Assembly (NCBI GenBank): GCA_023267375.1
Contig: JAHFNJ010000001.1
Span: forward strand, 21,878-85,877
Direction: 5' to 3'
From: Candidatus Nomurabacteria bacterium
Lineage (GTDB): Bacteria > Patescibacteriota > Minisyncoccia > Phycocordibacterales > UBA9973
Length of the DNA stretch: 64,000 nt
The position numbers and the translations under genes are program-made. Positions 6,250-60,566 of the stretch are shown here, one piece after another; position 1 is the first letter of the stretch, and each line of letters opens with the position of its first letter. The notes beneath the pieces were generated by a model, which had not been told where the DNA came from, ran no database searches, and saw nothing but the letters and a program-made list of their open reading frames with translations.

Positions 6250-7278
6250 TTACGCTACACTATAGAGTCCGTTTTTATTCTTCTTGAAATATTTTGGATT
6301 CTGCAGATTGACGAGGATTGTATTTTTCTTAAGAAAACGTTCTTTGGAAACCTTATCGACAACATCATCTTTCGAGAGCGGTCCTTCTTTTTTCAAAATT
6401 TCCTTGATGACATCGCGGACAATTCCTTTTTTATATCCCCATTCAGAGAGTCCGTAAGTACCGCGACCAACCAACACGAAACGCCCATCTTTAATAAGTT
6501 CATTGTGACAGGTAGCCGTGTGACATTTCTTGTTGAACGTATCACCGATAGCTTTTGCAACTTCACGGAAGTGCATTGGTGAACCATGTTTTCGCATCAT
6601 AAGGAATGCGTAATCTTTGATACCGCGAGTCTTCACATTTGAAGATTCTGCCTTACCCCATTCACCGAGTGGATTGCGATTTATATTTTTTGAAATGTTC
6701 AACCAGCGACGAGCGATTTCTTCATTGCGGTATTTATCAGAAACGTTCTTGATGTTCTCAAGAAATCGACTGATCAAATCAGATTCGGAAATGAGTTCAT
6801 CATCAGAAAGAGAACTGTAGAGTTTGCGAAGTGACTCATGCACTTCTTTTGAAATTTCATCATCAACACTCCAGCGTGCACGGAACTCTTCATCTTCTTT
6901 TTCTTTCTTAAATTCGTCACCCAAGACGAGATAGAGGTGGATGTGGTTCTGCGTAGCTTTATCAGAAGAGAGATGTTCAAGGAAATCATCCTCAGAGACA
7001 ACGGCACCAAGCTCATGCATAGCAGTTTTGAGTTCTTCAAACGCCTGAGTTGCTTCCTTAAATGTTTCAGACTTTTTAACAGCAGCGAGCGCAGCGTTTT
7101 CAATCTGACGAACACGCTCACGAGTAATACCATATTTTTGACCGATAGCTTCAAGCGTCTTTCGTTCTGCATCTTCACCTAAACCGAAACGATTAAAGAC
7201 CACATCGTACGCGCGGTTCTGAAGTGGTGAGAGAATCTTTTTAGTAACTTGCTTAGGTTTGAAGGAAATTTTTGCCAT
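6250..7278 (-). CDS. DNA-binding protein: sigma-70 region-4-like HTH plus a C-terminal HARE-HTH domain
   Basis: N-terminal LEAIGQKYGITRERVRQIENAALAAVKK is a sigma-70 region 4 HTH. C-terminal ...MHFREVAKAIGD..GRFVLVGRGTYGLSEW is HARE-HTH-like, as in the RpoE delta N-terminal domain. Confidence 0.6.
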   Translation of the reverse strand: MAKISFKPKQVTKKILSPLQNRAYDVVFNRFGLGEDAERKTLEAIGQKYGITRERVRQIENAALAAVKKSETFKEATQAFEELKTAMHELGAVVSEDDFLEHLSSDKATQNHIHLYLVLGDEFKKEKEDEEFRARWSVDDEISKEVHESLRKLYSSLSDDELISESDLISRFLENIKNVSDKYRNEEIARRWLNISKNINRNPLGEWGKAESSNVKTRGIKDYAFLMMRKHGSPMHFREVAKAIGDTFNKKCHTATCHNELIKDGRFVLVGRGTYGLSEWGYKKGIVRDVIKEILKKEGPLSKDDVVDKVSKERFLKKNTILVNLQNPKYFKKNKNGLYSVA

Positions 7279-11954: not shown

Positions 11955-11963
11955 TAGATTAGG

Positions 11964-11992
11964 TTTTAGGTTCTAGTTGCTAGGTTCTAGTT
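11964..11992. repeat. left inverted repeat of the four-helix-bundle cassette
   Basis: ttaggttctagttgctaggttctag. It matches the reverse complement of 12336..12369 over about 19 of 20 bp, plus extensions. Confidence 0.6.
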
Positions 11993-12335
11993 TATTAATA
12001 ATAGTTCGTAACATTTTACTTACTTCTTCAAGTAACGGCAATGACTCATCGACAGAAATACTATACAAATCCCTGCAAAGAAGTAGTTGGGTCTCAAGTT
12101 CTGCAGCAGATCCATACGCTAAATGCAGAAACTGGCAATAATCCTTTCTTGTTTTTCTATTACTACCTTCAGCAATATTGGATACGATTGAGACTGCAGA
12201 TCGGCGCACCTGAGATTGAAGTGCATATACTTCGGAATTTGGAAGTTTAATACTTATCTTGTAAACAATTTTTACCAACTCATATCCTTTCTGCCAAACA
12301 ATTAGATCTTTGTATGATTTTATTTTTGTATCCAT
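11973..12335 (-). CDS. four-helix-bundle protein (TIGR02436 family, the kind found in 23S rRNA intervening sequences)
   Basis: SQVRRSAVSIVSNIAEGSNRKTRKDYCQFLHLAYGSAAELETQL is the family signature. The ORF is bracketed by CTAG-rich inverted repeats. Confidence 0.8.
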   Translation of the reverse strand: MDTKIKSYKDLIVWQKGYELVKIVYKISIKLPNSEVYALQSQVRRSAVSIVSNIAEGSNRKTRKDYCQFLHLAYGSAAELETQLLLCRDLYSISVDESLPLLEEVSKMLRTIINKLEPSN

Positions 12336-12369
12336 ACTAGAAACCTAGCCCCTAGTAACTAGAACCTAA
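12336..12369. repeat. right inverted repeat of the four-helix-bundle cassette
   Basis: actagaaacctagcccctagtaactagaacctaa. Its reverse complement matches the left repeat. It overlaps the frr stop codon. Confidence 0.6.
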
Positions 12370-13027: not shown

Positions 13028-13441
13028 ATGAAAAAAGATTCTAAAAATCTAATGACTGTTTTACTTGGTGATTTAAAAAATGGCATTCGTGCACATTTTG
13101 CAGATTCCGCTATTAAGAACAGCGCACTCAAAGAAGAAACCTTTTTACTATCCGCCAATGGTGTCGTACATTATCACCGTAAATGGATTTTTGAAAAATC
13201 AAACGATGGGTGCGATGAGATTAAACAGCATACAATACTTATCTCCAGAACTAAACTGGAAGAAATTATGTTACATTCTGCTATCACCGTATTCAAGCTG
13301 CCAAATACGGAACATCAGAAATGGGAACATGTCGATCCGGTATGGAGTGATCTAAATTTTAATCACAAATCTGATGCGGCTCCCATTTTTACATCAACCC
13401 TGAAGCAGGTAATTAAAAAAGATAGCGTCACCGCTGAATAA
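13028..13441 (+). CDS. hypothetical protein
   Basis: 137 aa with no recognisable motif. Followed by a terminator. Confidence 0.4.
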   Translation: MKKDSKNLMTVLLGDLKNGIRAHFADSAIKNSALKEETFLLSANGVVHYHRKWIFEKSNDGCDEIKQHTILISRTKLEEIMLHSAITVFKLPNTEHQKWEHVDPVWSDLNFNHKSDAAPIFTSTLKQVIKKDSVTAE

Positions 13442-15335: not shown

Positions 15336-16640
15336 ATGGCAAGTTTAAAGATACAAGGCGGGAAAAAACTAAGCGGCGAAATCATTCCGCAAGGAACAAA
15401 AAACGAAGCGCTCGAAGTCTTGTGCGCAACATTACTCACTGATGAAGAAATCCGGATCGAAAATGTTCCGGATATTTTGGATATACAAAACCTTCTCACG
15501 GTGCTTGAAAAATTGGGAGTAACTATTACAAAAGAAGATGCGCACACCTATACGTTTCGCGCACAGAATATTAACGTTGACTATTTAAATGGTAATGGCG
15601 ACATCGCCGAAGCAGCAACGATCCGTGGCTCACTCATGGTTGCGGGACCGCTTCTTGGCCGTTTTGGAAAAGCATACATGCCGAAGCCGGGCGGAGACAA
15701 AATTGGTCGCCGCAGACTCGATGCTCATATTTTCGGATTTGAAAAATTAGGAGCGACCGTAGCACGCTCAGAAAAAACAAATGCATACCTCATCTCGGCC
15801 CACAAACTCACTGGTGCAGATATTCTTTTTGATTATGCCTCTGTCACTGGAACAGCAAATACTATTATGGCAGCAGTACTCGCAGAAGGTACAACCACAC
15901 TCTACAACGCAGCGTGCGAACCCCACGTCCAACAATTATGCAGAATGCTAAACTCTATGGGCGCGCAGATCTCTGGTATTGGTTCAAACATGCTTGCAAT
16001 TACTGGTGTAGAAAAATTAAAAGGCTGCACGCACCGCATATTGCCCGACATGATTGAAATTGGTAGCTTCATCGGACTTGCCGCAATGACCGGCTCTGCG
16101 CTTACCATAAAAGATGCGGATTACGGACACCTGGGAAACATTCTTCCAACATTTCGCAAACTTGGTATTCAGATACAACAGGAAGGAAAAGATATCATCA
16201 TTCCAACACAAGAACACTACGCTATAGAAAAATTCTTAGATGGATCAATCTACACACTCATGGATGCAGTGTGGCCAGCCTTCCCTGCAGACTTGCTCTC
16301 AGTAGTACTCGTCGTTGCAACACAGGCAAAAGGAAGTATGCTAATCCATCAATCAATGTTTGAGAGCAGACTTTTCTTTGTTGATAAATTGATCGACATG
16401 GGTGCACAGATTATTTTATGTGATCCGCATCGTGCAGTTGTTGTCGGACTCGATCATGAAAGTTCTCTTCGCGGCATTACCATGTCATCTCCAGATATTC
16501 GCGCCGGCGTTGCACTCTTGATCGCCGCACTTTCCGCAAATGGAGAAAGCACTATTCACAATAGCGAACAAATCGATCGCGGCTATGAACGTATCGCTGA
16601 ACGACTTTCACTACTCGGAGCAAAAATTGAACGTTTTTAA
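15336..16640 (+). CDS. murA: UDP-N-acetylglucosamine 1-carboxyvinyltransferase
   Basis: 434 aa. LKIQGGKKLSGEI..KNEALEVLCA and full-length MurA similarity. Confidence 0.9.
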   Translation: MASLKIQGGKKLSGEIIPQGTKNEALEVLCATLLTDEEIRIENVPDILDIQNLLTVLEKLGVTITKEDAHTYTFRAQNINVDYLNGNGDIAEAATIRGSLMVAGPLLGRFGKAYMPKPGGDKIGRRRLDAHIFGFEKLGATVARSEKTNAYLISAHKLTGADILFDYASVTGTANTIMAAVLAEGTTTLYNAACEPHVQQLCRMLNSMGAQISGIGSNMLAITGVEKLKGCTHRILPDMIEIGSFIGLAAMTGSALTIKDADYGHLGNILPTFRKLGIQIQQEGKDIIIPTQEHYAIEKFLDGSIYTLMDAVWPAFPADLLSVVLVVATQAKGSMLIHQSMFESRLFFVDKLIDMGAQIILCDPHRAVVVGLDHESSLRGITMSSPDIRAGVALLIAALSANGESTIHNSEQIDRGYERIAERLSLLGAKIERF

Positions 16641-16657
16641 AAAATTAAATAAAAAGA

Positions 16658-16688
16658 AACCCGCCCTGCGTAAGCAAGACGGGTTTTT
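16658..16688 (+). terminator. rho-independent terminator of murA
   Basis: aaacccg..cgggttt stem followed by a T run. Confidence 0.5.
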
Positions 16689-16709
16689 TGTTTTTGTTTC
16701 CCTTTTTTT

Positions 16710-17120
16710 TCAATTATTTTTTTGTAATACATCCAGCTCTTTCTTAAAAAAGAGGATGTGGCGGCGATTTTCTTCGATTGTCATTAGCATTCCTGCAAAG
16801 AAACGTGAGATAACAATCACAAGAATAAAACCGATTGGAAAAAGAAACGATTCGACAACAGCCAAATCATTTGCTCTTCCAATAAAATAACTGAGGAAAA
16901 TGATAAGAGTAACTCCTGCACCAACAGGGGTAAGCACTTCAAACAATTTCTTGAAGCCAGTTCTTAATTGAGAAACCAGCGAATCAAGAATCACCACGAT
17001 TGGTGAGGGGCCAGCGGTAACTGCTTGGGAGTAATTCCATAATAATTGAGCGACTACAATATTCGCCCGCTTTTTTAATCTTTTCATTTTACTTTTTTGG
17101 GGTTTTTGGGGGTTGAACAC
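16710..17120 (-). CDS. hypothetical membrane protein
   Basis: 136 aa with three or four TM helices and a basic N-terminus. Confidence 0.4.
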   Translation of the reverse strand: MFNPQKPQKSKMKRLKKRANIVVAQLLWNYSQAVTAGPSPIVVILDSLVSQLRTGFKKLFEVLTPVGAGVTLIIFLSYFIGRANDLAVVESFLFPIGFILVIVISRFFAGMLMTIEENRRHILFFKKELDVLQKNN

Positions 17121-17268
17121 TATTATACTGTAAAAATAACAAGCCTAAATAATAGCATTCCATACCAAAAAGTCAAGCATCTTTTGCGTTAAAATGCCAA
17201 TATTTAAAGGATTTACTGGTTAAATGTACCCTTCTCCTTTAAGGAGAGTGTGATACACTAGCACTCGT

Positions 17269-19203
17269 ATGAAAGCAGTGACTGTTGTCCCTATCGCAAA
17301 AGGGATAGGCAAAGAGCATTTAACCTATTTTTCGGCCAAAGATATTACTGTTGGCACGATTGTTTCTGTACCGATTCGCAATAAAATTATTGATGCACTC
17401 GTCGTTGAAACCAGCGACGTTGAAAATACAAAATCTGAAATTAAAGAAGCATCCTATCAGCTTAAGAAAATAGAAAAAGTAAAAGGAACTTCCCTCTTTT
17501 CTGATGCATTTCTTCACACTGTTGATCTAGCTCGCCGCTACTACCTGACACAAACTGGTGCCATGATTGAAGCAGTTGTGCCAAAAGTACTCATGACTCA
17601 TGCACAGTCGCTCAATCATCCGGCAAAAGAAAAAGAGAGTGACAAGCCCACCATCAAACAAGAAAAAGTGGCATTCCAAGCGCCACTCGAAGATCGACTA
17701 GTCTACTACAAAACATTCATCCGCGAATCATTCGCTCGCAAGCAGTCAGTGTTTATTACACTACCGACGATTCACGAAATCGAAACGTTCGCGGAAACAC
17801 TCGCAAAAGGAATCGAGACGTACACATTTGTGCTTCATAGCGACCTGCCTGCTAAAGAAATTGTCTTGCTCTACAATCAAATCCTCGACGAACCGCATCC
17901 GGTGCTCATTATTGCAACACCATCATATGTGGTCATCCCTCGGCAAGACATTGGCACCTATATCGTTGAACGCGAAAACTCAAGTGCCTATCGCCTGATC
18001 GAACGCCCACAAATTGATATGCGTCTCTTTGTGGAATTTTATGCCCGTGAACGAAACAAAAAATATATTCTCGCAGACACCTTTCTCCGCGTTGAAACAC
18101 TCTTTCGTATTGATGTGCATGAATTGGGAGAAGTCGCCTCTTCTGTTTTTCGATTACCACAAGGCGTAGAAATAGATATCGTTGATACGAAGCGTTCCGA
18201 CGCACCAGTTGTTGTACGAAAGAAATTCCAAATCATCAGCGACGAAGCACTGGCGACCATCCGCTCGGCAATAGCTGCAAAAAAACATGTCTTTCTTTTC
18301 ACCCTTAAAAAAGGCTTAGGGTCAATTACACTCTGCAACGACTGTGGTGAAGCACTCTTGTGCGATATGTGCGCTTCGCCAATGCGGCTCGTGCAAAATG
18401 CTACCGGGGATCGCATGTATCGCTGTAACCGCTGCAAGCGCACAAAGGACGCCACGACTCCATGCTCGCTCTGCGGCAGCTGGAATTTGATCGCGCTTGG
18501 TATCGGCACCGACCGCGTCTATGAAGAATTGCATTCTCATTTTCCAGACGTTCCGCTATTTCGTGTCGATAAAGACATCACAAAAACGGATGCTGCTGCG
18601 CGAAAAGTAATGCGCGAATTTTATAAAACAAAAGGCGCAATTCTCTTGGGTACCGAAATGACTTTTTTCCATCTTGATAATAAAGTGGACTACAGTGTCA
18701 TCGTTTCATTTGATTCTCTCTTCTCATTGCCATCATTTCGCATCCACGAAAAAATTCTCCAACTCTACCTTACCCTTCATTCATACACAGAGAAAAAAAT
18801 AATAATCCAAACAAAAAATCCACGTGAAGAAATAATCATGGCTATCAAACATTCAAATGCGCTCAATTGGTACCGGAGTGAACTCAAAATGCGCGAAGCG
18901 GCACACTATCCACCATTTACGATGCTCATGAAAATTAGTTACCGCGGTATAAAAGACGAAGTCGAGAAAGCGAAGGCAGAATTTTTGCTTGCCCTCCACG
19001 ACTACCATCCAGTTGTTTTTCAATCGACCGAGGCAAAAATAAAAGGCGTCTATGTCGTCAACGCGGTACTCAAAATAGCTCGCGAACGCTGGATACTATC
19101 ATTCTTAAACGACAGCAACACCTATGACAAGAAGCTAGAGCGTATTTTACGCTCCCTGGACCCCGAAGCCTCTATTCAGATTGATCCGGAGGACCTTTTA
19201 TAA
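17269..19203 (+). CDS. priA: primosomal protein N' (PriA)-like, with degenerate helicase motifs
   Basis: PriA-like N-terminal 3'-DNA-binding region and Cys-rich zinc region (CNDCGEALLCDMC...YRCNRCKRT...CSLCGS). Where Walker A should be, the sequence is FQAPLEDR. DEEH is ERENSSAY. Confidence 0.7.
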   Translation: MKAVTVVPIAKGIGKEHLTYFSAKDITVGTIVSVPIRNKIIDALVVETSDVENTKSEIKEASYQLKKIEKVKGTSLFSDAFLHTVDLARRYYLTQTGAMIEAVVPKVLMTHAQSLNHPAKEKESDKPTIKQEKVAFQAPLEDRLVYYKTFIRESFARKQSVFITLPTIHEIETFAETLAKGIETYTFVLHSDLPAKEIVLLYNQILDEPHPVLIIATPSYVVIPRQDIGTYIVERENSSAYRLIERPQIDMRLFVEFYARERNKKYILADTFLRVETLFRIDVHELGEVASSVFRLPQGVEIDIVDTKRSDAPVVVRKKFQIISDEALATIRSAIAAKKHVFLFTLKKGLGSITLCNDCGEALLCDMCASPMRLVQNATGDRMYRCNRCKRTKDATTPCSLCGSWNLIALGIGTDRVYEELHSHFPDVPLFRVDKDITKTDAAARKVMREFYKTKGAILLGTEMTFFHLDNKVDYSVIVSFDSLFSLPSFRIHEKILQLYLTLHSYTEKKIIIQTKNPREEIIMAIKHSNALNWYRSELKMREAAHYPPFTMLMKISYRGIKDEVEKAKAEFLLALHDYHPVVFQSTEAKIKGVYVVNAVLKIARERWILSFLNDSNTYDKKLERILRSLDPEASIQIDPEDLL

Positions 19204-19243
19204 AATGACGAATGTCTAATTTCTAATGACTAATGAAAAATCC
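19204..19243 (-). repeat. copy A of the 'tagtcattagaaattag' repeat family (minus orientation, next to a terminator hairpin)
   Basis: Reverse complement reads ...cattagtcattagaaattagacattcgtcatt, immediately 3' of the hairpin containing cgattcgtgaaa. Confidence 0.55.
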
Positions 19244-19276
19244 CGACTCGCTTTCACGAATCGGGATTTTTTAATT
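19244..19276. terminator. bidirectional rho-independent terminator (priA-like / 19289..20029)
   Basis: atcccgactcg..cgaatcgggat, an 11-bp stem including G-U pairs, then a T run. Confidence 0.55.
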
Positions 19277-19288
19277 TTAAGAAATTAG

Positions 19289-20029
19289 TTACTTGAAACA
19301 CGCAACCATCGCATTCTCAATTTTAAAAGATCTGCCACAGAAACGAATGTCGTCTGATAAGTACATTTTCGGAAAATACTTTATCTGCCTATCCCAATGG
19401 TTTTCATAATCACATCCCATAAATCGAACATATGCATCTCCGTTCTCTGTTCCTCCATATTTTTTACCGTAAATAGTATTGAGAAACAAAGTAGGATACT
19501 CTTTCCATGATTCAGGGATTAAGTAACGAAAATCAAAAAGATAATCAGCAATACATCCGTTGCACAAGCTGAAATGCTTGCTGAAATATTCATGCATCAG
19601 CCAACCATTAATGATCCCTTTTTTACTTGCGAAATGATCTCTGTATTTAATAAGAGGAACAAGAGATATTTTTTTAGGATTCCAAGGAAAATCTGGCTGA
19701 GGAGTATGTTTCTTCAGATAATACCCATCCTGGGGATGGAAGAGATCTGGTTGAACATCTCCACAAATCATGTGGCTTTCATTTGGCATCCCTCCATTGT
19801 TAACAAATAGGATGAATTCTTTTACAAGTCGTTCATCATTTTTAATGAGTACTTGACTTCCCTCTTTGTTTAAGAGTTCTTCCATTTCTGGATACTTACT
19901 CAATAGGCAAGTGATCATTTTATGAAATTGACCAAGACTTGCTTTTTCATTTACTGGTTTCATTTTATTCTTTTTTATGGGTTTACGACACCCGACTACG
20001 GAATAGTACTTAGCAACATGGCTGTTCAA
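19289..20029 (-). CDS. hypothetical Cys-rich protein (orphan, flanked by inverted repeats)
   Basis: 246-aa ORF with nine Cys, several Trp/Tyr-rich stretches and no motif I recognise. It has its own terminator. Confidence 0.5.
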   Translation of the reverse strand: MNSHVAKYYSVVGCRKPIKKNKMKPVNEKASLGQFHKMITCLLSKYPEMEELLNKEGSQVLIKNDERLVKEFILFVNNGGMPNESHMICGDVQPDLFHPQDGYYLKKHTPQPDFPWNPKKISLVPLIKYRDHFASKKGIINGWLMHEYFSKHFSLCNGCIADYLFDFRYLIPESWKEYPTLFLNTIYGKKYGGTENGDAYVRFMGCDYENHWDRQIKYFPKMYLSDDIRFCGRSFKIENAMVACFK

Positions 20030-20069
20030 TTCAAACTAACCATACTATTTTTTAACATATAGTCAAGAT

Positions 20070-20108
20070 TACTACATTTTTTAGTCATTAGAAATTAATA
20101 ATTAGACA
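20070..20108 (+). repeat. copy C of the 'tagtcattagaaattag' repeat family
   Basis: ttttttagtcattagaaattaataattagacatt. This is the inverted partner of copy A. Confidence 0.55.
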
Positions 20109-20128
20109 TTTGCGTAATCACAACTGGT

Positions 20129-20395
20129 ATGTTATTATCCCCTCACATGATTTCAAATATAGCAGTCAGTAAAAATAACAACGAAAACAACCAGAGCTTG
20201 CTCCGCCGTTTTTCTCGTCGCGTACAAGAAACAAGCCTTTTGCCAAAAGTAAAAGGAAATCGCTATGCACAGCGCAAGAAATCAAAATTGGTAGTAAAAG
20301 CAGCAACCTTGAAGAAGCTCGCTCGTCGAAAAGAGATTGAAAAACTCAAGAAACTCGGCAAAATGGTAGAACGCGAAGGACGTGGATCTAAATAA
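20129..20395 (+). CDS. rpsU: 30S ribosomal protein S21
   Basis: LLRRFSRRVQETSLLPKVKGNRYAQRKKSKLVVKAATLKKLARRK matches the bS21 pattern. The start may be the in-frame ATG at 20147. Confidence 0.55.
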   Translation: MLLSPHMISNIAVSKNNNENNQSLLRRFSRRVQETSLLPKVKGNRYAQRKKSKLVVKAATLKKLARRKEIEKLKKLGKMVEREGRGSK

Positions 20396-24458: not shown

Positions 24459-24947
24459 CTAAGCTGCAATAGGTTTTTTAATCCTAAAAAATTTACAGAC
24501 CCGAGAAGTCATCTTCCCCACTTTAACAGCAGGAAAATCATGGCCGAATATTTCCCTGGTGGGAGAATATTTTAATCTTGGGTGGTAGTAGCTTAACTCT
24601 ACTCCTTCGTTTAATACAAATCGAAACACAATTTTTTTCTTCGACTGTGGACGAGTTAAATCAATGGACGGAGTTCGCTCTCCTCCTCGCCTTTCCTCAG
24701 GCAAAGTTGGAGAAACGGAAACATTTGTCCCAACAATAATTTGTTGAGCAAGTGAAGTTAATCTATTTTCAAGCCCTCTCTTTTTAAATTTTCCGGGCTG
24801 AAAAGTTAATCGCTGTGATTTCATTTTTTTCGGGGGTTTTATAGGTGAAACAAAATGTTGAGAACAATTTTGCAAAGAGTGTAGCAAAATGAGCGCAAAC
24901 GTCAATACGTTTGCGCTCATTTGTATCAAATATTTACGGATGGACAA
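24459..24947 (-). CDS. hypothetical basic protein (doubtful gene)
   Basis: 162-aa ORF that fills a 520-bp gap. Its first ~20 codons overlap the terminator hairpin of the upstream gene, so a real gene would be shorter. No motifs. Confidence 0.2.
   Translation of the reverse strand: MSIRKYLIQMSANVLTFALILLHSLQNCSQHFVSPIKPPKKMKSQRLTFQPGKFKKRGLENRLTSLAQQIIVGTNVSVSPTLPEERRGGERTPSIDLTRPQSKKKIVFRFVLNEGVELSYYHPRLKYSPTREIFGHDFPAVKVGKMTSRVCKFFRIKKPIAA
24890..24920 (-). terminator. rho-independent terminator of the 24934..25683 gene
   Basis: tgagcgcaaacg..cgtttgcgctca perfect 12-bp hairpin, followed on the minus strand by TTTTGCT. Confidence 0.5.
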
Positions 24948-27144: not shown

Positions 27145-27483
27145 TTGAGATGGTTTACTAAATTAGTCTCACAATTTAATCTTAATATTATGAATTATAA
27201 ATTGAATCTTAAAGGCACAGAGGTGGATGTAGAATTTTCACCTGATGAAAAAATAGTCATTGTTGAAGAAATTCATCTTTCACCTTACACCTATGGCGTA
27301 CTTGATTTAATAAAGAAAAAAGAAGGTATTCCTGCAGGGGAAGTAATTGTTACAAATGGCATTTTTAGTCTCATGAAAAAACGTGATCAGGAAGCGTATA
27401 TCGTTGACTGTAGAGACTATCAAAAAATCTGTAACATTTCAGAGATACAGGAGTTAAAACTTTCTCAACCTATAAAAGGTTAA
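27145..27483 (+). CDS. hypothetical protein inserted in the mur cluster
   Basis: 112-aa ORF (possibly starting at MNYKL, 27190) with no motifs. Followed by a terminator plus copy B of the repeat family. Confidence 0.35.
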   Translation: MRWFTKLVSQFNLNIMNYKLNLKGTEVDVEFSPDEKIVIVEEIHLSPYTYGVLDLIKKKEGIPAGEVIVTNGIFSLMKKRDQEAYIVDCRDYQKICNISEIQELKLSQPIKG

Positions 27484-27517
27484 TTACACCAAGGTAGCCT
27501 CTGATGAAACTGGTAAA

Positions 27518-27592
27518 ATAGAAACTCGCGATTCGTGAAAACGGACCGCGAGTTTTTCTTTTTTAGTCATTAGATATTAGAAATTAGTCATT
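27518..27592 (+). repeat. copy B of the terminator-associated repeat family
   Basis: aaactcgcgattcgtgaaaacggaccgcgagttttt hairpin, then ttttttagtcattagatattagaaattagtcatt. It shares cgattcgtgaaa and the tail with the copy at 19204..19285. Confidence 0.55.
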
Positions 27593-27594
27593 TC

Positions 27595-28935
27595 CTACCC
27601 CTGCAATCTGCTTACTATTTCATTAAACTGCTCTCCCCTGTCGTATTCATTTTTAAACATACCAAACGAAGCAAAGCCAGGACTAAAGAGCACAATATCT
27701 CCGGGGAGAGATTGATGCAAGGCTTCGCGCACCGCTTCCTCCAGATTTTCTGCATTATACTTCTCTACTTGAAGATCATATTCAGTTTCCAGACGTTCTG
27801 TTCCAGACCCTGGAAGCAAAATCAATCGCTTGGCATACTTCGGCATTTTGTTTACCAAGACACTCATATCAAGATGTTTATCTGCGCCACCCATGATCAG
27901 CACCACATTGTCATCATACGAAAGCGCTTTGAGTCCTGCGAGTGTCGCATCAGGAGTTGTCGAGGTAGTATCGTTATAAATTTCAACACCGCGGTACTCG
28001 CCGACACGCTGCAATCTGCCTGGCACACCCTTAAATGATTGTACAGCGACCTGAATGATACTCTCATCAACATTGAGTGCACGCGCAGCCCCGACAGCAA
28101 GTTCGACATTGTGCCGATTGTGTTCACCAGGAACGGTAATTTTCCATGCAGGAGAAAGATGGTGCGCAAAGACAATGTGTGATTTTATATCATCGTGATA
28201 TCGCTTCTTCAGATGCTCATACAATCCTTCAGTCACCACAAGAATATCGTGGCCAGATTGATAGAGAAAAATATTTGCCTTGTCGGCCAAATACCGATCA
28301 CGGTCACCACTATAATAATTTAAATGGTCATCCATGAAATTCGTAAACACGGCAATATGTGGAGAAATGTTGTCTTCACCAAAACCTTGCAGCTGCCATG
28401 AATCAAGTTCGAGCACTACAATGTCCCCCTCCTTCACTTCACGGATTAAGGGCAAAGTCGCCCTGCCCTGCAGATTGCCCGCAGCAAAAACTTTTGTGTC
28501 ACTTTCTCCATGAGCTTTTTTTAGTATTTCATAAATGAGAAGTGTGGTTGTGGTCTTGCCACGCGTACCCGTTACGCCGACAATCGTCACACCTTTCGCA
28601 AGCTTTGCAAAAAGCGATGCATCCATTTCAATCGGTATATTATTTTCTCGTGCGTGCGCAATGTACGGTGAATCAAGCGGCACTCCAGCAGCCTTGAGAA
28701 TAAAATCTTTGTTTTCAAAATCTTCCATGCGATGCTCGCCCAAAACAAACGTAATATTCGGGAGATGTGTAAGTTCTGCAAGCGACGGTTCAAGTTCTTC
28801 TTTTTTCTTTAAATCGGTAACGGTAAGAATCGCCCCGGCTTCCGCCAAGAATTTAATATCGCCGATCCCGCGCCCAAGAAGCCCGAGTCCCATTACGGTT
28901 ACTTTTTTCCCTTTAAAATAGTCAGGGTGAATCAT
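27595..28935 (-). CDS. murD: UDP-N-acetylmuramoylalanine--D-glutamate ligase
   Basis: VMGLGLLGRG and GVTGTRGKTTTT, a full-length Mur ligase. Confidence 0.9.
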   Translation of the reverse strand: MIHPDYFKGKKVTVMGLGLLGRGIGDIKFLAEAGAILTVTDLKKKEELEPSLAELTHLPNITFVLGEHRMEDFENKDFILKAAGVPLDSPYIAHARENNIPIEMDASLFAKLAKGVTIVGVTGTRGKTTTTLLIYEILKKAHGESDTKVFAAGNLQGRATLPLIREVKEGDIVVLELDSWQLQGFGEDNISPHIAVFTNFMDDHLNYYSGDRDRYLADKANIFLYQSGHDILVVTEGLYEHLKKRYHDDIKSHIVFAHHLSPAWKITVPGEHNRHNVELAVGAARALNVDESIIQVAVQSFKGVPGRLQRVGEYRGVEIYNDTTSTTPDATLAGLKALSYDDNVVLIMGGADKHLDMSVLVNKMPKYAKRLILLPGSGTERLETEYDLQVEKYNAENLEEAVREALHQSLPGDIVLFSPGFASFGMFKNEYDRGEQFNEIVSRLQG

Positions 28936-33638: not shown

Positions 33639-33710
33639 GGCTCCATCGTCTAACGGTTAGGACATCGGCTTTTCAAGCCGGTAATCGGGGTTCGATTCCC
33701 CGTGGAGTCA
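33639..33710 (+). tRNA. tRNA-Glu(UUC)
   Basis: Manual cloverleaf: acceptor ggctcca/tggagtc, D-stem cgtc.., anticodon loop ttTTCaa, T-arm cgggg-ttcgatt-ccccg. Confidence 0.85.
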
Positions 33711-33759
33711 CACCACTAAAAATCCCTGCTACAGAAGAAGTGGGGATTTTTTGGTTTTT

Positions 33760-33846
33760 GGAGAGGTGGCTGAGTGGTTGAAGGCACTGGTTTCGAAAAC
33801 CAGCATGGGAGAAATCTCATCGAGGGTTCAAATCCCTCCCTCTCCG
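33760..33846 (+). tRNA. tRNA-Ser(CGA), type II with long variable arm
   Basis: Acceptor ggagagg/cctctcc, anticodon loop ttCGAaa, long variable arm, T-arm gaggg-ttcaaat-ccctc. Confidence 0.85.
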
Positions 33847-33962
33847 CAACAAATTGAAATACTACAGCAAGGCAAAGGGCCTTGTTTTTTGTTTGACTAT
33901 TTATATTATGTATGTTATTTTATTAAAAAATAAATCTAATCTTTAAATCAGAATAAAAAAAA

Positions 33963-56165: not shown

Positions 56166-59100
56166 TTACAACCCCAATGCTTGCAGTATCGCTGCCCAGG
56201 TTACTGGACCAACAACACCATCAACCGGAGCAAGACCTTTTGCAGCTTGGAATGCTTTCACCGCTGCTTCGGTCTGTAATCCGAAGTATGCATTTTCATT
56301 ACCAGGAGAACCGCCACCAGTTGTTGAAACGATGAATCCCAATTTGTTGAGTGATTGCTGAAGGAACATTACATCAGGACCGGTTGATTTGTATTTCAAT
56401 ACTCCAGTGTATGGATGACCGTTTGATGATGCTCCTGCATTACTGTTCCCTGATGGAGGAGTAACGCCAGCACACGACTGACCGGTTGATGGAGAGAAGA
56501 GGAAGCCTGCAGCACAGTCTGTTGGAGGGGTTGCTGGGGTTGCAGGAGGAGTTACTTTTGGACGTGATGATCCTCCACCGCCTCCACCACTAATGCTGGT
56601 GCCAGACGATGACTTATTAAATGTTGCAGTGCAGGTCTTGTCATCATCCATTGTAATTGTAATCGTCGCATTTGTACTTGAAGAACAGCCAGACCAATTC
56701 TTGAACGTAGATTTTGCTGCCGCTACTGCATAGAGTGTTACTTCTGTACCATCATCATAATCAGGTCCTTCTGGGTCAACATGGATAGTGCCTGTGCCAT
56801 TTCCTGAAGTATTGGTAGTTAAAGTAAATTGTTCAGGACCAGTCGAAACAAATGTTGCATGAATAGAATGGTTACCAGTAACATCTGTAAATTCATACGT
56901 TGTAACTGCGCCAACAGAAACATCATCTACAGTTACATCATCAATTGCGTATCCTTCGCTTGGAGCTACTGTAAAGGATTGGTCATCTCCTTCTGCAACG
57001 GACACCACTCCACTTGGAGTGACTGTTCCATTACCACCAGTTGTAGCGGTAATGTGATGCGTTTGAACGAGTGTAGGATAATCACCAACATTTGTTTTCC
57101 ATATGGTGTCAAAATTCCAGCTACCATTATCAAATGGATGATTAGCGGTGACGTCGCCGAAGAAATAGTTTGCACCAAGGGCAACAGGCGCGTTCACTCC
57201 TTCACATTCACCTGCAGTATCGTTTGCAACAGGAGGATCGATCCAGTCAGTAAATATCGAACAATGATCCTGTCCACTTCGATCTATATCGTAATAGTTA
57301 TTTGAGAGAGTTGCGCCATCATCATTTTCACCGAGAAAGCCGGCAGTAAAGATTCCAAATCCGGAAACTTCTTCAACTGCACCAGCAGAGAAACTGTTTG
57401 AGATAGTACCGCCTTCAGTTTCACCCACAAGTCCGCCGACTTCAGATTCAGTTTCTTGAACATCTGTTTCTAAATCTTCATCCCACATAAGCAACCCTGT
57501 AAGATCTCCCGTTACATCACCAGAAGCATATGAGTGGTCAATAATTGTTTCGTCAGCAAACCCTACGAGGCCACCAACCGAACGTGTTCCTGAAACATCA
57601 CCACTCGCATAAGAGTTATCGATTGTAAGAACACCTTCTGAATCTCCAATAAGACCTCCGGTATCCTGACCTCCAGTAACATCACCAGTCGCATATGAAG
57701 TGGTAATAGTTGTATCATCATCTGCTCCACCTATAAGTCCACCGAATCCATAGTAATCATTATCAATTTGAGATGTTATATTACCAGTTGCATGAGAATC
57801 AGTAATATTCACAGTTACTAAATCACTCGTCCACCCAACTAAGCCACCCAAATACTCATAGATACTTGAAACATCATTTGTTGCATAGCTTTGATCAATG
57901 TTTACTGTTGTTGGATTTTCACCCCACCACCAACCTGACTCTACTGAACCGAGTAGTCCACCAGCGTATCCTTCATCAATACTACCAAGTTCATCTGACG
58001 CGCCAATATCTCCCACAGCATTTGAGTTGGTAATGTTTATAACTTGGTGACCTCCACTATTTATCGAATAACCTATAAGCCCACCGATAGAGGAACTTCC
58101 AATTTCAATCGGAACGTCACTATAACTATCAGTTACGGTGAGCGTATTTGTTTCACCTGTATCGCCACCTGTATAAAATTCTCCTATCAATCCTCCAATG
58201 TATTCACCATCTTCTGTTGTACTTGAGATGGTTCCTGTAGCGCTACTTCCATCAATCACTGCTGTTGCTTGATCATTAAGTTCAATTTCACCAATAAGAC
58301 CTCCAGCGTAACCTTCTGGTGCGGTAACCACGTTCCCACTTTCATTAGTCCATGAACTATCAGTTATAGTAAGCTCATCTCCATTTTCAACATTAGCATA
58401 ACCAATTAGTCCGCCAACTTCCTCATTACCTGTAACATCTTCAGTTGAAGTACTATTTTCTATAGTAATGTCAGCATCGTATATTTCACCTAAAAATCCA
58501 CCTATACCATAAGATTCACTTGTATTTGTAATAACATTTGCAGAATTTGTACTATCAGTAATCGTTATTGCTCCACTATTATTATCATCCCCATCATACT
58601 CTCCGATAAATCCACCCACTCCCTCTCCATTACCTGTTGTAACTGCTCCCTGATTTGTTGCATCATCAAAATTAATAGTAAAAGGTATATCCTCTGAGTA
58701 TGCATGTCCGATGAAGCCACCTATATAATAATTCCAAGTAGTACCCTCATTATCTGTGGCAGTTACACTTGCATTATTGTAACTCTCTCCTTCTATACTT
58801 ATAGAACTATTACGAGAATCTACTTGCCCAATAAATCCTCCAAGACTGTATATATCGTTACCACTTGAAGTACTACCAATACTTCCATCAACATAACTAT
58901 TATCTACAGTAATCACGCTGTTATAACGGATTATAGAATAACCTATAAGTCCACCGATATACCCACTATTTGTAGCAGAAATATTTACGTTAGCATCTGA
59001 ATCTGAAATAGTTACATTACTTCCAAAGCGCTGCTCCAATCTTCCAAACATTCCACCTAAATTATTCTGACCATCATCTACTGAAAGCTGTCCTTCGGTG

Positions 59101-60566
59101 CCATAATTTACGGAAGTATTTGAAACCGTGAGTGTTGCTCCGTGGTATGCATCTCCATATCCAACAAGACCACCGACATCATAATTACCGTGCACAGCTC
59201 CATCAACTCCACCAACAATAGTATCTGAAATAGTTAAAGAAGAATCGTAATACATCTCGTATCCTCCTATAAGACCACCGACATCACTATCCCCAGTTAA
59301 ATGAAGATTACTTGTACTGTTTGTTATTGAAAGCAAACTATCACGTGCATCCCAGTATCCAACAAATCCTCCTATATCACTCCACGCACTATCAATTGTT
59401 CCATCGGCACTTGTATCATCTATGTAAACACTACCTGCGGAAGATTCCCAATAATCATCATTGTTAACATAACCAATAATTCCACCAACATCATATATAT
59501 TATCTCCATTGCCAATATCTACAGTGGCATGAGAACCGCCATTAATAACAAGTGAACCACCACGATACTGTTCTACTTCTCCAACAAGTCCACCAATATC
59601 ATATCCTGGAATTATTCCACCTTCATCTATAAGTACATTAGTATCTACGTTTGTAAGCGTGAGAACAGAACCACCAGATTCAATATCTGCATAACCGACA
59701 GCTCCACCCAATTCTCCTTGACCATTTATAGTTGCCTCTCCATCCCCCCAAGAAGTGTCACTAAGAGTAGCTTTTGCCGAGGAATCAAGATATACATAAC
59801 CAATAAGTCCCCCAACATCATTACTACCTGACGCAACATCACCAGTTACCACTACATCATCAACAGTAAGACTCGCATTATTGGACATATTTACATATCC
59901 AATAAGTCCACCTGTTGCCCAACCATCATTCGTGACATTCACCGATACAGATCCTCCTGTTATTGAAACAGCACTACTTGCAGCATCCCCATATACTTCT
60001 CCGACAAGTCCACCGATATAGTAGTTTACTCCATGAACAGTTCCGCTTGCTGACACATTTTCAACCGTTGAATCATATTGAAGGTACCCAGCAAGTGCTC
60101 CGATATTATAAGCTCCACTCATATTAACGTCTGTAAGTGTAAAATCATGAATATATGCACCATTATTTGTATCACTGAAAAGTCCTACACCATCCTCACC
60201 TGGACGATTTATATATAAGCCAGTAATTGTATTACTGTTTCCGTCCAAGGTTCCAGAGAAATTTTCAAGTGGAGAAAAACCATAAAATCCACCTTCTCCA
60301 TTATCATTCCAGGTGGTTGTACCCGAACAATTAATAACTCCTTCGCCACCATTTAATTGATAGTAAACTCCTGGAGCTACATTGTTACCAATTGCTTGCA
60401 ATTCTTCACACGTAGTAATGAGATAAGGATTATCGGCAGTACCATCGGGATCAGCAAACGATGTTTTTGGGTAGACAGCAACCAAGGTAACTAGCACTAT
60501 CGCAAAAATTCCCGTTGGAACAAATGAAAACTTCCTGAATTTTTTAAAAAAGTTTGTGGTAATCAT
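56166..60566 (-). CDS. giant cell-surface protein: signal anchor, ~35 GLUG-type repeats, InlB-B-like repeat, Cys motif, and a C-terminal peptidoglycan-binding domain
   Basis: 1466 aa. Reiterated ..(I/V)GG(L/F)(I/V)G(Y/E).. units of ~25 to 30 aa (GLUG motif). C-terminus ...PSEGYAIDDVTVDDVSVG..YEFTDVTGNHSIHATF, G6SS linker, DCAAGFLFSPSTGQSC, then LxxGxxGxxVxxLQ...DGVVGPVT (PG_binding_1-like). Confidence 0.7.
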   Translation of the reverse strand: MITTNFFKKFRKFSFVPTGIFAIVLVTLVAVYPKTSFADPDGTADNPYLITTCEELQAIGNNVAPGVYYQLNGGEGVINCSGTTTWNDNGEGGFYGFSPLENFSGTLDGNSNTITGLYINRPGEDGVGLFSDTNNGAYIHDFTLTDVNMSGAYNIGALAGYLQYDSTVENVSASGTVHGVNYYIGGLVGEVYGDAASSAVSITGGSVSVNVTNDGWATGGLIGYVNMSNNASLTVDDVVVTGDVASGSNDVGGLIGYVYLDSSAKATLSDTSWGDGEATINGQGELGGAVGYADIESGGSVLTLTNVDTNVLIDEGGIIPGYDIGGLVGEVEQYRGGSLVINGGSHATVDIGNGDNIYDVGGIIGYVNNDDYWESSAGSVYIDDTSADGTIDSAWSDIGGFVGYWDARDSLLSITNSTSNLHLTGDSDVGGLIGGYEMYYDSSLTISDTIVGGVDGAVHGNYDVGGLVGYGDAYHGATLTVSNTSVNYGTEGQLSVDDGQNNLGGMFGRLEQRFGSNVTISDSDANVNISATNSGYIGGLIGYSIIRYNSVITVDNSYVDGSIGSTSSGNDIYSLGGFIGQVDSRNSSISIEGESYNNASVTATDNEGTTWNYYIGGFIGHAYSEDIPFTINFDDATNQGAVTTGNGEGVGGFIGEYDGDDNNSGAITITDSTNSANVITNTSESYGIGGFLGEIYDADITIENSTSTEDVTGNEEVGGLIGYANVENGDELTITDSSWTNESGNVVTAPEGYAGGLIGEIELNDQATAVIDGSSATGTISSTTEDGEYIGGLIGEFYTGGDTGETNTLTVTDSYSDVPIEIGSSSIGGLIGYSINSGGHQVINITNSNAVGDIGASDELGSIDEGYAGGLLGSVESGWWWGENPTTVNIDQSYATNDVSSIYEYLGGLVGWTSDLVTVNITDSHATGNITSQIDNDYYGFGGLIGGADDDTTITTSYATGDVTGGQDTGGLIGDSEGVLTIDNSYASGDVSGTRSVGGLVGFADETIIDHSYASGDVTGDLTGLLMWDEDLETDVQETESEVGGLVGETEGGTISNSFSAGAVEEVSGFGIFTAGFLGENDDGATLSNNYYDIDRSGQDHCSIFTDWIDPPVANDTAGECEGVNAPVALGANYFFGDVTANHPFDNGSWNFDTIWKTNVGDYPTLVQTHHITATTGGNGTVTPSGVVSVAEGDDQSFTVAPSEGYAIDDVTVDDVSVGAVTTYEFTDVTGNHSIHATFVSTGPEQFTLTTNTSGNGTGTIHVDPEGPDYDDGTEVTLYAVAAAKSTFKNWSGCSSSTNATITITMDDDKTCTATFNKSSSGTSISGGGGGGSSRPKVTPPATPATPPTDCAAGFLFSPSTGQSCAGVTPPSGNSNAGASSNGHPYTGVLKYKSTGPDVMFLQQSLNKLGFIVSTTGGGSPGNENAYFGLQTEAAVKAFQAAKGLAPVDGVVGPVTWAAILQALGL

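Follow-up and report, generated by a model that had tools for sequence, protein, structure and literature searches.

Diversity-generating retroelements (DGRs) copy a template repeat (TR) into a variable region (VR) with adenine-specific mutagenesis, and the conserved scaffold of the target protein thereby acquires a ligand-binding surface that is hypervariable. The CLec (C-type-lectin)-fold variable proteins of DGRs with solved structures are Mtd from Bordetella phage BPP-1, TvpA from Treponema denticola, and TaqVP from Thermus aquaticus (PMC6328139). The targets of clade-2 DGRs from candidate phyla radiation (CPR) bacteria are usually without transmembrane segments or recognizable domains and may be variants of CLec that have escaped recognition (Roux et al. 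2021, PMC8144416). Here, we describe open reading frame X (ORF X, P0001), located in a 64,000-nucleotide stretch of DNA from a Candidatus Nomurabacteria bacterium (assembly GCA_023267375.1, contig JAHFNJ010000001.1, positions 21,878–85,877), which is referred to as the window. The host of the window belongs to the Paceibacteria (Patescibacteria/CPR), and the nearest relatives of its PriA are from metagenome-assembled genomes of 'Candidatus Paceibacterota'. ORF X occupies positions 19289..19963 of the minus strand, including the stop codon, and encodes a protein of 224 residues, a divergent and stand-alone representative of a Patescibacteria family of DGR variable proteins. The interpretation that we favour, with moderate confidence, is that ORF X is a 'frozen' or domesticated paralogue without a DGR, which was exchanged by recombination in a variable slot between housekeeping genes, and that the repeat arrays bordering the slot are older boundary motifs.

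The protein encoded by ORF X has no significant match in Pfam, NCBIfam, PADLOC, PHROGs, or the sequences of the PDB; with no hit in PADLOC or PHROGs, it is not a recognizable protein of the defence or toxin-like kind proposed in the initial annotation of the locus. A word-indexed homology search returned only the ORF X protein itself, from two ENA samples. The exhaustive comparison of ORF X with 1.84 billion cluster representatives using phmmer identified 38 homologues with E ≤ 1e-3, the best of which has an E-value of 3.5e-51, so that the gene is not the orphan that it was initially taken for. Four of the homologues, P0122–P0125, are X-type relatives, which are 30–51% identical to ORF X in alignment A1 and have E-values from 3.5e-51 to 1.6e-16. 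The second group comprises many members, which are approximately 150–240 residues long and share the motifs H.IDCDADPF.P.GW, LNACVLDYLL.HP.LIPEEWKGK, FFWGTIYR, VR.L.W, and PAAVLAS. The phmmer matches of ORF X to canonical-type members have E-values from 3.7e-10 to 2e-8. The alignment of ORF X to the canonical alignment A2 by hhalign has a probability of 99.2% and an E-value of 1.6e-19, and includes residues 7–197 (19373..19945, minus strand), which form the N-terminal helical part and the core of the protein. The core of ORF X contains the motifs H.I.C.D..P, LCNGCIADYLF in place of the family LNACVLDYLL, LIPESWK, and LNTIY in place of the family FWGTIY. The protein, in which no motif had been recognized previously, therefore belongs to the DGR variable-protein family of Patescibacteria.

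The connection of the family to DGRs is evident from the locus of P0159, a canonical member with a length of 237 residues (24 contigs), which adjoins a gene for bAvd (PF22296) and a reverse transcriptase (RT) of the RVT_1 family. The last 126 nucleotides of the P0159 gene (6587–6712 of contig L015) recur 499 nucleotides downstream (7086–7211) with 89% identity. The two copies differ in 14 positions, 13 of which are adenines in the downstream copy, and L015 thus carries the TR/VR signature of a DGR. In canonical members, approximately the last 42 codons constitute the VR, which the neighbouring Avd and RT rewrite from the TR. The GC-rich block CCTGCGGCGGTGCTCGCAA is present at the ends of both the VR and the TR. 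Metagenome contigs scanned with two family motifs contain at least 520 family loci, the best 80 of which were analysed. Avd, RT, or TR is recognizable at 37 of these 80. In the best 60-nucleotide VR/TR windows of eleven loci, 114 of 118 mismatches are located at adenines of the TR, and at a further set of loci the match obtained with tblastn extends into the TR. VR and TR were thus verified in L015 and in ten further loci. Downstream sequence of at least 1.5 kb is available for 27 family loci, of which 13 contain DGR parts and 14 contain none. These results identify a family of DGR variable proteins in Patescibacteria, about half of the copies of which stand alone. Only five canonical-family loci are present in IMG/VR, and the family is almost entirely cellular. 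The members of the family have no matches at a meaningful level in Pfam and none among the sequences of the PDB. Multi-domain relatives have no co-occurring Pfam domain that is informative, and the hit of P0138 is a short match in an SprB adhesin that is probably spurious. Polypeptides P0126, P0128, P0133, and P0135, which are 481–804 residues long, contain three to four DGR-target domains in tandem.

ORF X resembles the clade-2 DGR targets of CPR bacteria, as these are characterized by Paul et al. 2017 in the account given by Roux et al. 2021 (PMC8144416), in scaffold homology, length of about 200–240 residues, the succession of an N-terminal helical part and an α/β core, and in belonging to the same group of organisms. 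Neither ORF X nor the clade-2 targets have a signal peptide, transmembrane segment, or Pfam domain. Since a signal peptide is missing, and there is no transmembrane segment, the ORF X protein looks cytoplasmic and is probably intracellular. The AlphaFold2 model of ORF X calculated with the family alignment has a mean predicted local distance difference test (pLDDT) score of 86.7, with values above 90 for residues ~70–224, whereas the prediction from the single sequence, with a pLDDT of 33, is useless. In the model, strands are followed by two to three helices and a C-terminal sheet. This predicted order of secondary-structure elements would be compatible with a CLec-like α/β domain, and the C-terminal position of the VR in Mtd, TvpA, and TaqVP is the same as in the family of ORF X.

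Unlike the clade-2 targets, ORF X has no RT, cognate Avd, or TR within the 64 kb of the window. Searches with tblastn using the RT and Avd of L015 as queries did not provide any real match in the window; an RT-like match at 33691–33891 (E 0.004) is a tRNA gene region and was rejected. A TR for the last 200 nucleotides of ORF X was sought in the window with 60-nucleotide stretches, adenine-tolerant and on both strands, and the best non-self scores equal the shuffled background. No long repeat identified in a repeat search of the window involves ORF X. The region of ORF X that corresponds to the C-terminal VR of the family, residues 165–224 (19292..19471, minus strand), is longer than the VR and includes a ~17-residue insertion common to ORF X, P0122, and P0123. 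The codons of the region are ordinary and rich in A (AAA, AAG, and GAG, with only two AAC) and lack DGR codon design. The 3′ end of a VR contains a GC-rich sequence of the initiation of mutagenic homing (IMH) type, the conservation of which extends to the TR (Guo et al. 2011, PMC3240598). ORF X ends with ...AATGCGATGGTTGCGTGTTTCAAGTAA and lacks an IMH-type block there. ORF X also differs from the clade-2 targets in that it belongs to a small divergent subfamily (P0122–P0125) with its own 5′ leader.

The established membership of ORF X in the family, together with the existence of DGRs that act on remote targets, allows for the explanation that RT, Avd, and TR encoded outside the window still diversify the gene. 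Two contigs from ENA (18.4 kb and 2.0 kb), each of which contains the whole ORF X, match the window with 100% identity, and so does the Logan contig L101 (SRR14366796, 3.1 kb), which is equivalent to positions 16269–19347. L101 is an independent assembly that stops within ORF X, 59 nucleotides from its 3′ end, which may be caused by low coverage or by variation of the VR region in the population; breaks of this kind are possible at hypervariable regions. An Avd-like gene located 7 kb from ORF X could also be regarded as a component of such a system; however, it is of the PF05635 type and has no detectable similarity to the cognate Avd of the family. The two ENA contigs do not differ from the window in the VR-equivalent region, and the identity of the public contigs shows that the consensus sequence of ORF X does not change between samples. 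Mutagenesis at adenines would convert the AAA, AAG, and GAG codons of the VR-equivalent region into stop codons. With the ~17-residue insertion and no IMH-like end in this region, and no TR-like sequence in the 64 kb, continuing diversification of ORF X by a remote DGR is very unlikely.

The initial annotation placed the gene at 19289..20029. This reading frame is present and contains 246 codons from a TTG at position 20029; however, the most likely start is the ATG at position 19963, which is supported by public gene calls of 224 residues and by the N-termini of homologues that align there. The number of cysteines, reported as nine, is eight in the 246-residue reading and seven in the 224-residue protein. 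The protein is indeed rich in aromatic residues, with 36 phenylalanines, tryptophans, and tyrosines in the longer reading and 34 in the shorter one, which is ~15%.

X-type genes have a conserved non-coding 5′ leader, which is located at 19964..20030 of the minus strand in the window (TGAATTGAACAGC ... AGTACTATTCCGTA ... GGGTGTCGTAAAC). The leader is common to the window, L011 (upstream of P0122; 195–283), and L099 (upstream of P0124; 205–292), where the shared pattern is TGAATYGAAYRGC ... AGTAMYATTCCGYA ... G.G.CG.AA. It is strongly conserved even though the X-type proteins are only 34–44% identical, and it is positioned directly downstream of a TTGACA/−10 promoter. The promoter-like site of ORF X itself, a match to the consensus only, is located at 20039..20066 of the minus strand and is composed of TTGACT, a 16-nucleotide spacer, and TATGGT; in L011 and L099, comparable TTGACA/−10 boxes are found upstream of the respective homologue. 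The leader was not found at the 80 canonical family loci and has no match in Rfam, and RNAalifold indicates only a weak structure from the three sequences. Viral contigs scanned for ORF X and for its leader contain no match to either. X-type homologues, which are 34–51% identical to ORF X, keep its length, its C-terminal extension, and the conserved 5′ leader, and this retention indicates purifying selection on a distinct X-type subfamily. P0122, the closest homologue of ORF X with 44% identity, is flanked in L011 by direct repeats of ~32 nucleotides (~85–125 and ~1015–1050) with the sequence AAGCTGAC..T.TGGGACGA.GTTGGAACC, which suggests an att-like duplication around this copy.

ORF X is flanked by conserved housekeeping genes, as had been recognized initially: priA, encoding primosomal protein N′ (17269..19203, plus strand), on the left, and the rpsU-like gene for ribosomal protein S21 (20129..20395, plus strand), followed by ybeY, ftsA, and ftsZ, on the right. 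The adjacency of priA to rpsU-ybeY-ftsA-ftsZ is kept in L007, L009, L010, and L003, in which PriA is 75%, 72%, 67%, and 41% identical to that from the window, respectively. ORF X is not found at the priA–rpsU junction of any of these four relatives. In its place, L007, L009, and L010 contain minus-strand genes encoding 97, 48, and 119 residues, the last of which is lipoprotein-like, whereas the slot gene of L003 is encoded on the plus strand and specifies a membrane protein of about 170–204 residues. The slots of the four relatives are 410–925 nucleotides long, and their genes are dissimilar to ORF X and to each other. The 97-, 48-, and 119-residue products were considered as fragments of ORF X, to which they have no similarity. 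An empty priA–rpsU site is present in no relative examined, and no further copy of ORF X was found in any of the collections searched. The synteny thus favours gene turnover at this position.

The turnover is not limited to a single junction, because the slot between murA and priA is equally variable among the relatives. All six strain-specific small genes located between conserved blocks in the 10.8–29-kb segment of the window (13028..13441, 16710..17087, 24459..24920, 27190..27483, and those of two array-flanked cassettes) have a GC content of 0.32–0.385 and no tblastn counterparts in the relatives. The organization of the genome is that of a rigid core interspersed with numerous small, variable slots. 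ORF X, with a GC content of 0.354 and GC3 of 0.316, is AT-richer than the neighbouring housekeeping genes, the GC content of which is 0.40–0.46. The strain specificity, deviant composition, and position between housekeeping genes agree with the proposal that ORF X is an inserted accessory gene; the part of the proposal that is not supported is the delivery of the gene as an element bounded by repeats.

The low GC content, the strain specificity, and the very few close relatives of ORF X, in a slot that turns over fast, could also be expected of a decaying relic, which would have no function, be left over from a former DGR cassette or from a transfer event, and be kept by chance. However, the reading frame is intact and of full length, the model based on the family alignment is confident, the scaffold motifs are kept, and the X-type homologues retain the features described above. 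Decay is therefore a highly improbable explanation of ORF X.

The slot is bordered by arrays of seven-nucleotide repeats. The left array (19204..19238, plus strand) starts directly after the stop codon of priA and is composed of the heptads AATGACG AATGTCT AATTTCT AATGACT AATGAAA. The right array (20076..20110), which reads AATGTCT AATTATT AATTTCT AATGACT AAAAAAT on the minus strand, is inverted relative to the left one and longer by one heptad, and lies between the promoter-like site of ORF X and the upstream region of rpsU. Positions 19211–19232 match the reverse complement of 20082–20110 in 22 of 22 positions, with a single insertion of seven nucleotides that corresponds to the extra heptad. 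The inverted repeats previously reported around the gene are thus real; however, the insertion that distinguishes them was given as 5 bp. A search with the 22-mer allowing up to three mismatches provided four matches, compared with none expected. The motif CTAA or CTAG repeated at least three times with a period of seven gave six hits at four exact sites in the window, compared with ~0.03 in shuffled sequences, and the imperfect right array, identified in mismatch-tolerant scans, is the fifth array site. There are no CTAA/CTAG arrays with periods of 5, 6, or 8–11 in the window. Another 451 kb of CPR DNA gave six hits with the period of seven and none with periods of 5, 6, or 8–10.

The arrays are associated with terminators. 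An intrinsic terminator hairpin at 19236..19271, with a run of A on one side and a run of T on the other, folds far better than shuffled sequences on both strands (z-scores of −5.4 and −8.0) and is therefore a bidirectional terminator. The initial annotation was correct in assigning a terminator to ORF X; however, the hairpin is common to ORF X and the convergent priA and not the gene's own. A third array in the window (27563–27592) forms, together with a hairpin, a module at 27515..27592 of the minus strand, directly behind the stop codon with which a Mur-ligase gene (27595..28935) ends. The third array, a single one, shares 89% identity with the right arm of the ORF X slot. The loop and stem of its joined hairpin, at 27523–27556, resemble those of the hairpin at 19236–19271. 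The module faces a gene encoding a 97-residue ORFan (27190..27483) with a GC content of 0.323 and no family match. The hits in the other CPR DNA include a single array that follows the terminator of priA in the Taylorbacteria contig L004 and an array that follows the terminator of the X-type gene P0124 in L099, and the motif class is also seen beside terminators in other Paceibacteria. Because seven is not a multiple of three, the arrays place TAA or TAG in all six reading frames, and the left array contains stop codons in six frames.

Comparison with the relatives indicates the relative age of the arrays and the gene. L010 and L009 contain the array on the priA side, together with the hairpin, in the orthologous position, and L007 contains a reduced form; L010 also has the array on the rpsU side. 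The left arms of the window and L010 both contain AAATGAC, and the right arms both contain AAATGTC, which implies that each arm of the window is orthologous to that of L010. Since the two orthologous arms of L010 enclose an unrelated gene for a 119-residue protein, the arms, as judged from their sequences, predate the present cargo.

Miniature inverted-repeat transposable elements (MITEs) and non-autonomous insertion sequences with cargo have short terminal inverted repeats around a segment without a transposase, and the ORF X cassette resembles them in these features and in the several copies of the array. Unlike the ends of MITEs, the arms of the ORF X cassette are tandem seven-nucleotide arrays and not unique terminal sequences, and they are kept in place around different cargo in L010. 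There is no target-site duplication, as the outer flanks, ...TATAAAATGACG/AATGTCT and AGACATT/TGCGTAATC, do not contain a direct repeat. With neither a target-site duplication nor an empty site, with arms that predate the cargo, and with a third array that is single, the reading of the locus as a MITE or insertion sequence, to which its organization was initially likened, is not supported. The expression 'cassette bounded by inverted repeats' describes the locus correctly, whereas the mechanism that it was meant to imply is probably wrong.

The second pair of inverted arrays in the window flanks a clean insertion of a gene. Intervening sequences (IVSs) of 23S rRNA encode a four-helix-bundle protein of the PF05635 family and have inverted-repeat flanks. 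The cassette at 11955–12365 is similar to them in that a PF05635 (23S rRNA IVS protein)/Avd-like four-helix-bundle gene (11973..12335, minus strand, 120 residues) is located within inverted repeats of ~35 nucleotides and was inserted as a unit. The repeats (11959–11990 and 12345–12369) are an inverted pair of arrays of CTAGGTT-type heptads with 80% complementarity. Genes frr and rseP are separated by 1–3 nucleotides in L007 and L009, and in the window the 411-nucleotide array-gene-array unit is inserted exactly there. Unlike the rRNA intervening sequences, the cassette is located at a junction of protein-coding genes; it can be described as a single-gene element that resembles an IVS and resides in an operon of protein-coding genes. 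Its relevance to ORF X lies only in the architecture of heptad-array flanks common to both cassettes. The differences between the heptads of the two cassettes, AATGACT around ORF X and CTAGGTT around the Avd-like gene, the preservation of the ORF X arms around different cargo, and the presence of single arrays at ordinary terminators argue against a single transposition system.

Arrays of a similar format are known from the plasmid pSM19035, in which the operators of omega/ParB and parS are composed of contiguous 7-bp heptads, WATCACW, that are bound by ribbon-helix-helix proteins (PMC9499535). As an analogy only, the arrays described here resemble them in containing three to five contiguous seven-nucleotide direct repeats in either orientation and in promoter-proximal or intergenic positions. 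They differ in the sequences of the heptads, AATGACT or CTAGGTT, and in that several of them follow stop codons beside terminators. Furthermore, no cognate ribbon-helix-helix protein was identified here, though none was sought systematically.

These results can be combined into a model of the origin of the locus. ORF X keeps the scaffold of the family, has no retroelement within the 64 kb, and has a lengthened C-terminus with no DGR codon design. By analogy with other DGR variable proteins, the product may be a binding protein of fixed specificity. The gene would be expressed from its own promoter, with the conserved 5′ leader and the terminator common to priA. ORF X probably entered the slot through homologous recombination between the conserved flanks and not by transposition. 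The heptad arrays may be boundary elements at the ends of transcription units, where they would provide stop codons in six frames near terminators and/or serve as protein-binding arrays. The boundary role is speculative, and it is the weakest step of the model.

Several points weigh against this interpretation. A remote RT and TR may be encoded outside the 64 kb that were searched. All four of the closest X-type homologues are on contigs shorter than 1.4 kb, from which their DGR status is not readable. Unlike the CLec-fold DGR proteins, ORF X has no match among PDB sequences, and the comparison of its model with the PDB and BFVD by Foldseek gave no match at E ≤ 1e-3, the C-type-lectin fold included. 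Ligand binding by the family would be an extrapolation from other DGR variable proteins. The arrays can, judging by the clean insertion at the frr–rseP junction, be the ends of an inserted unit, so that such arrays may be associated with gene gain. Finally, the arms are near-identical in the window and L010, the PriA of which is 67% identical, whereas L007 and L009, although more closely related, have degenerate arms or none, and this patchy distribution also fits a mobile or exchanged element.

The last two points lead to the alternative that ORF X is the cargo of a mobile or exchangeable single-gene cassette, in which the inverted heptad arrays serve as att-like sites or as ends that are recognized, either in a non-autonomous element or in a system of cassette exchange. 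The matching of the inverted arms with an indel of one heptad, the dispersal of the arrays in the window, including the third copy, and the AT-rich cargo agree with this explanation, as do the hairpin and heptad array that follow the X-type homologue in L099 and the direct repeats that enclose the homologue in L011. However, no transposase or integrase is present in or near the ORF X cassette, which has no target-site duplication and no empty counterpart in the relatives. In addition, L010 has the same arms, each of them orthologous, around an unrelated gene, the heptads of the two cassettes of the window differ, and arrays occur singly at the third site of the window and beside terminators in the Taylorbacteria contig. 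We consider the mobile cassette unlikely. There is likewise a small chance that the inverted pairs of period-7 CTAA/CTAG arrays are boundary or recognition modules of an undescribed single-gene cassette system of Paceibacteria, which swaps small accessory genes, such as ORF X and the Avd-like gene 7 kb away, into the junctions of housekeeping genes; in that case, the X-type subfamily would represent a DGR variable protein that left its retroelement behind and acquired a conserved 5′ leader of its own. The preferred reading is that of a DGR-less paralogue that was probably placed by recombination between the conserved flanks in a slot with older boundary motifs.

The genes surrounding the locus are ordered rseP, the IVS-protein-like gene, frr, holB, and mreB on the minus strand, murA on the plus strand, an ORF encoding 125 residues on the minus strand, priA on the plus strand, ORF X on the minus strand, and the rpsU-like gene, ybeY, ftsA, ftsZ, and trxB on the plus strand. 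The annotated start of the rpsU-like ORF is probably too far upstream, as the sequences from relatives align from the ATG at position 20147 (MISNIAV...). A promoter-like pair, TTGCGT and TATTAT with a 17-nucleotide spacer (20110–20138), would overlap the upstream ATG of this ORF at position 20129. A minus-strand ORF encoding 1466 residues (56166–60566) contains diverged internal repeats, a family of five 57-nucleotide copies and a 53-nucleotide pair, which suggests a repetitive surface protein.

The analysis assigns ORF X, which had appeared to be an ORFan, to a defined and very abundant family, which has at least 520 metagenomic loci and is unannotated, with no Pfam entry, solved structure, or Foldseek match. 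DGR targets without recognizable domains have already been reported from CPR bacteria, and current understanding is not overturned. The priA–rpsU slot documents a fine-scale turnover of genes at fixed positions in otherwise rigidly syntenic genomes of Patescibacteria. The slot boundaries carry a class of motifs with seven-nucleotide periodicity and stop codons in six frames, and X-type genes carry a conserved leader. The family is composed of hypervariable proteins of ultra-small symbiotic bacteria, and approximately half of the members with enough sequence context are not adjacent to a retroelement, which raises the question of the use that these bacteria make of 'frozen' variable proteins.

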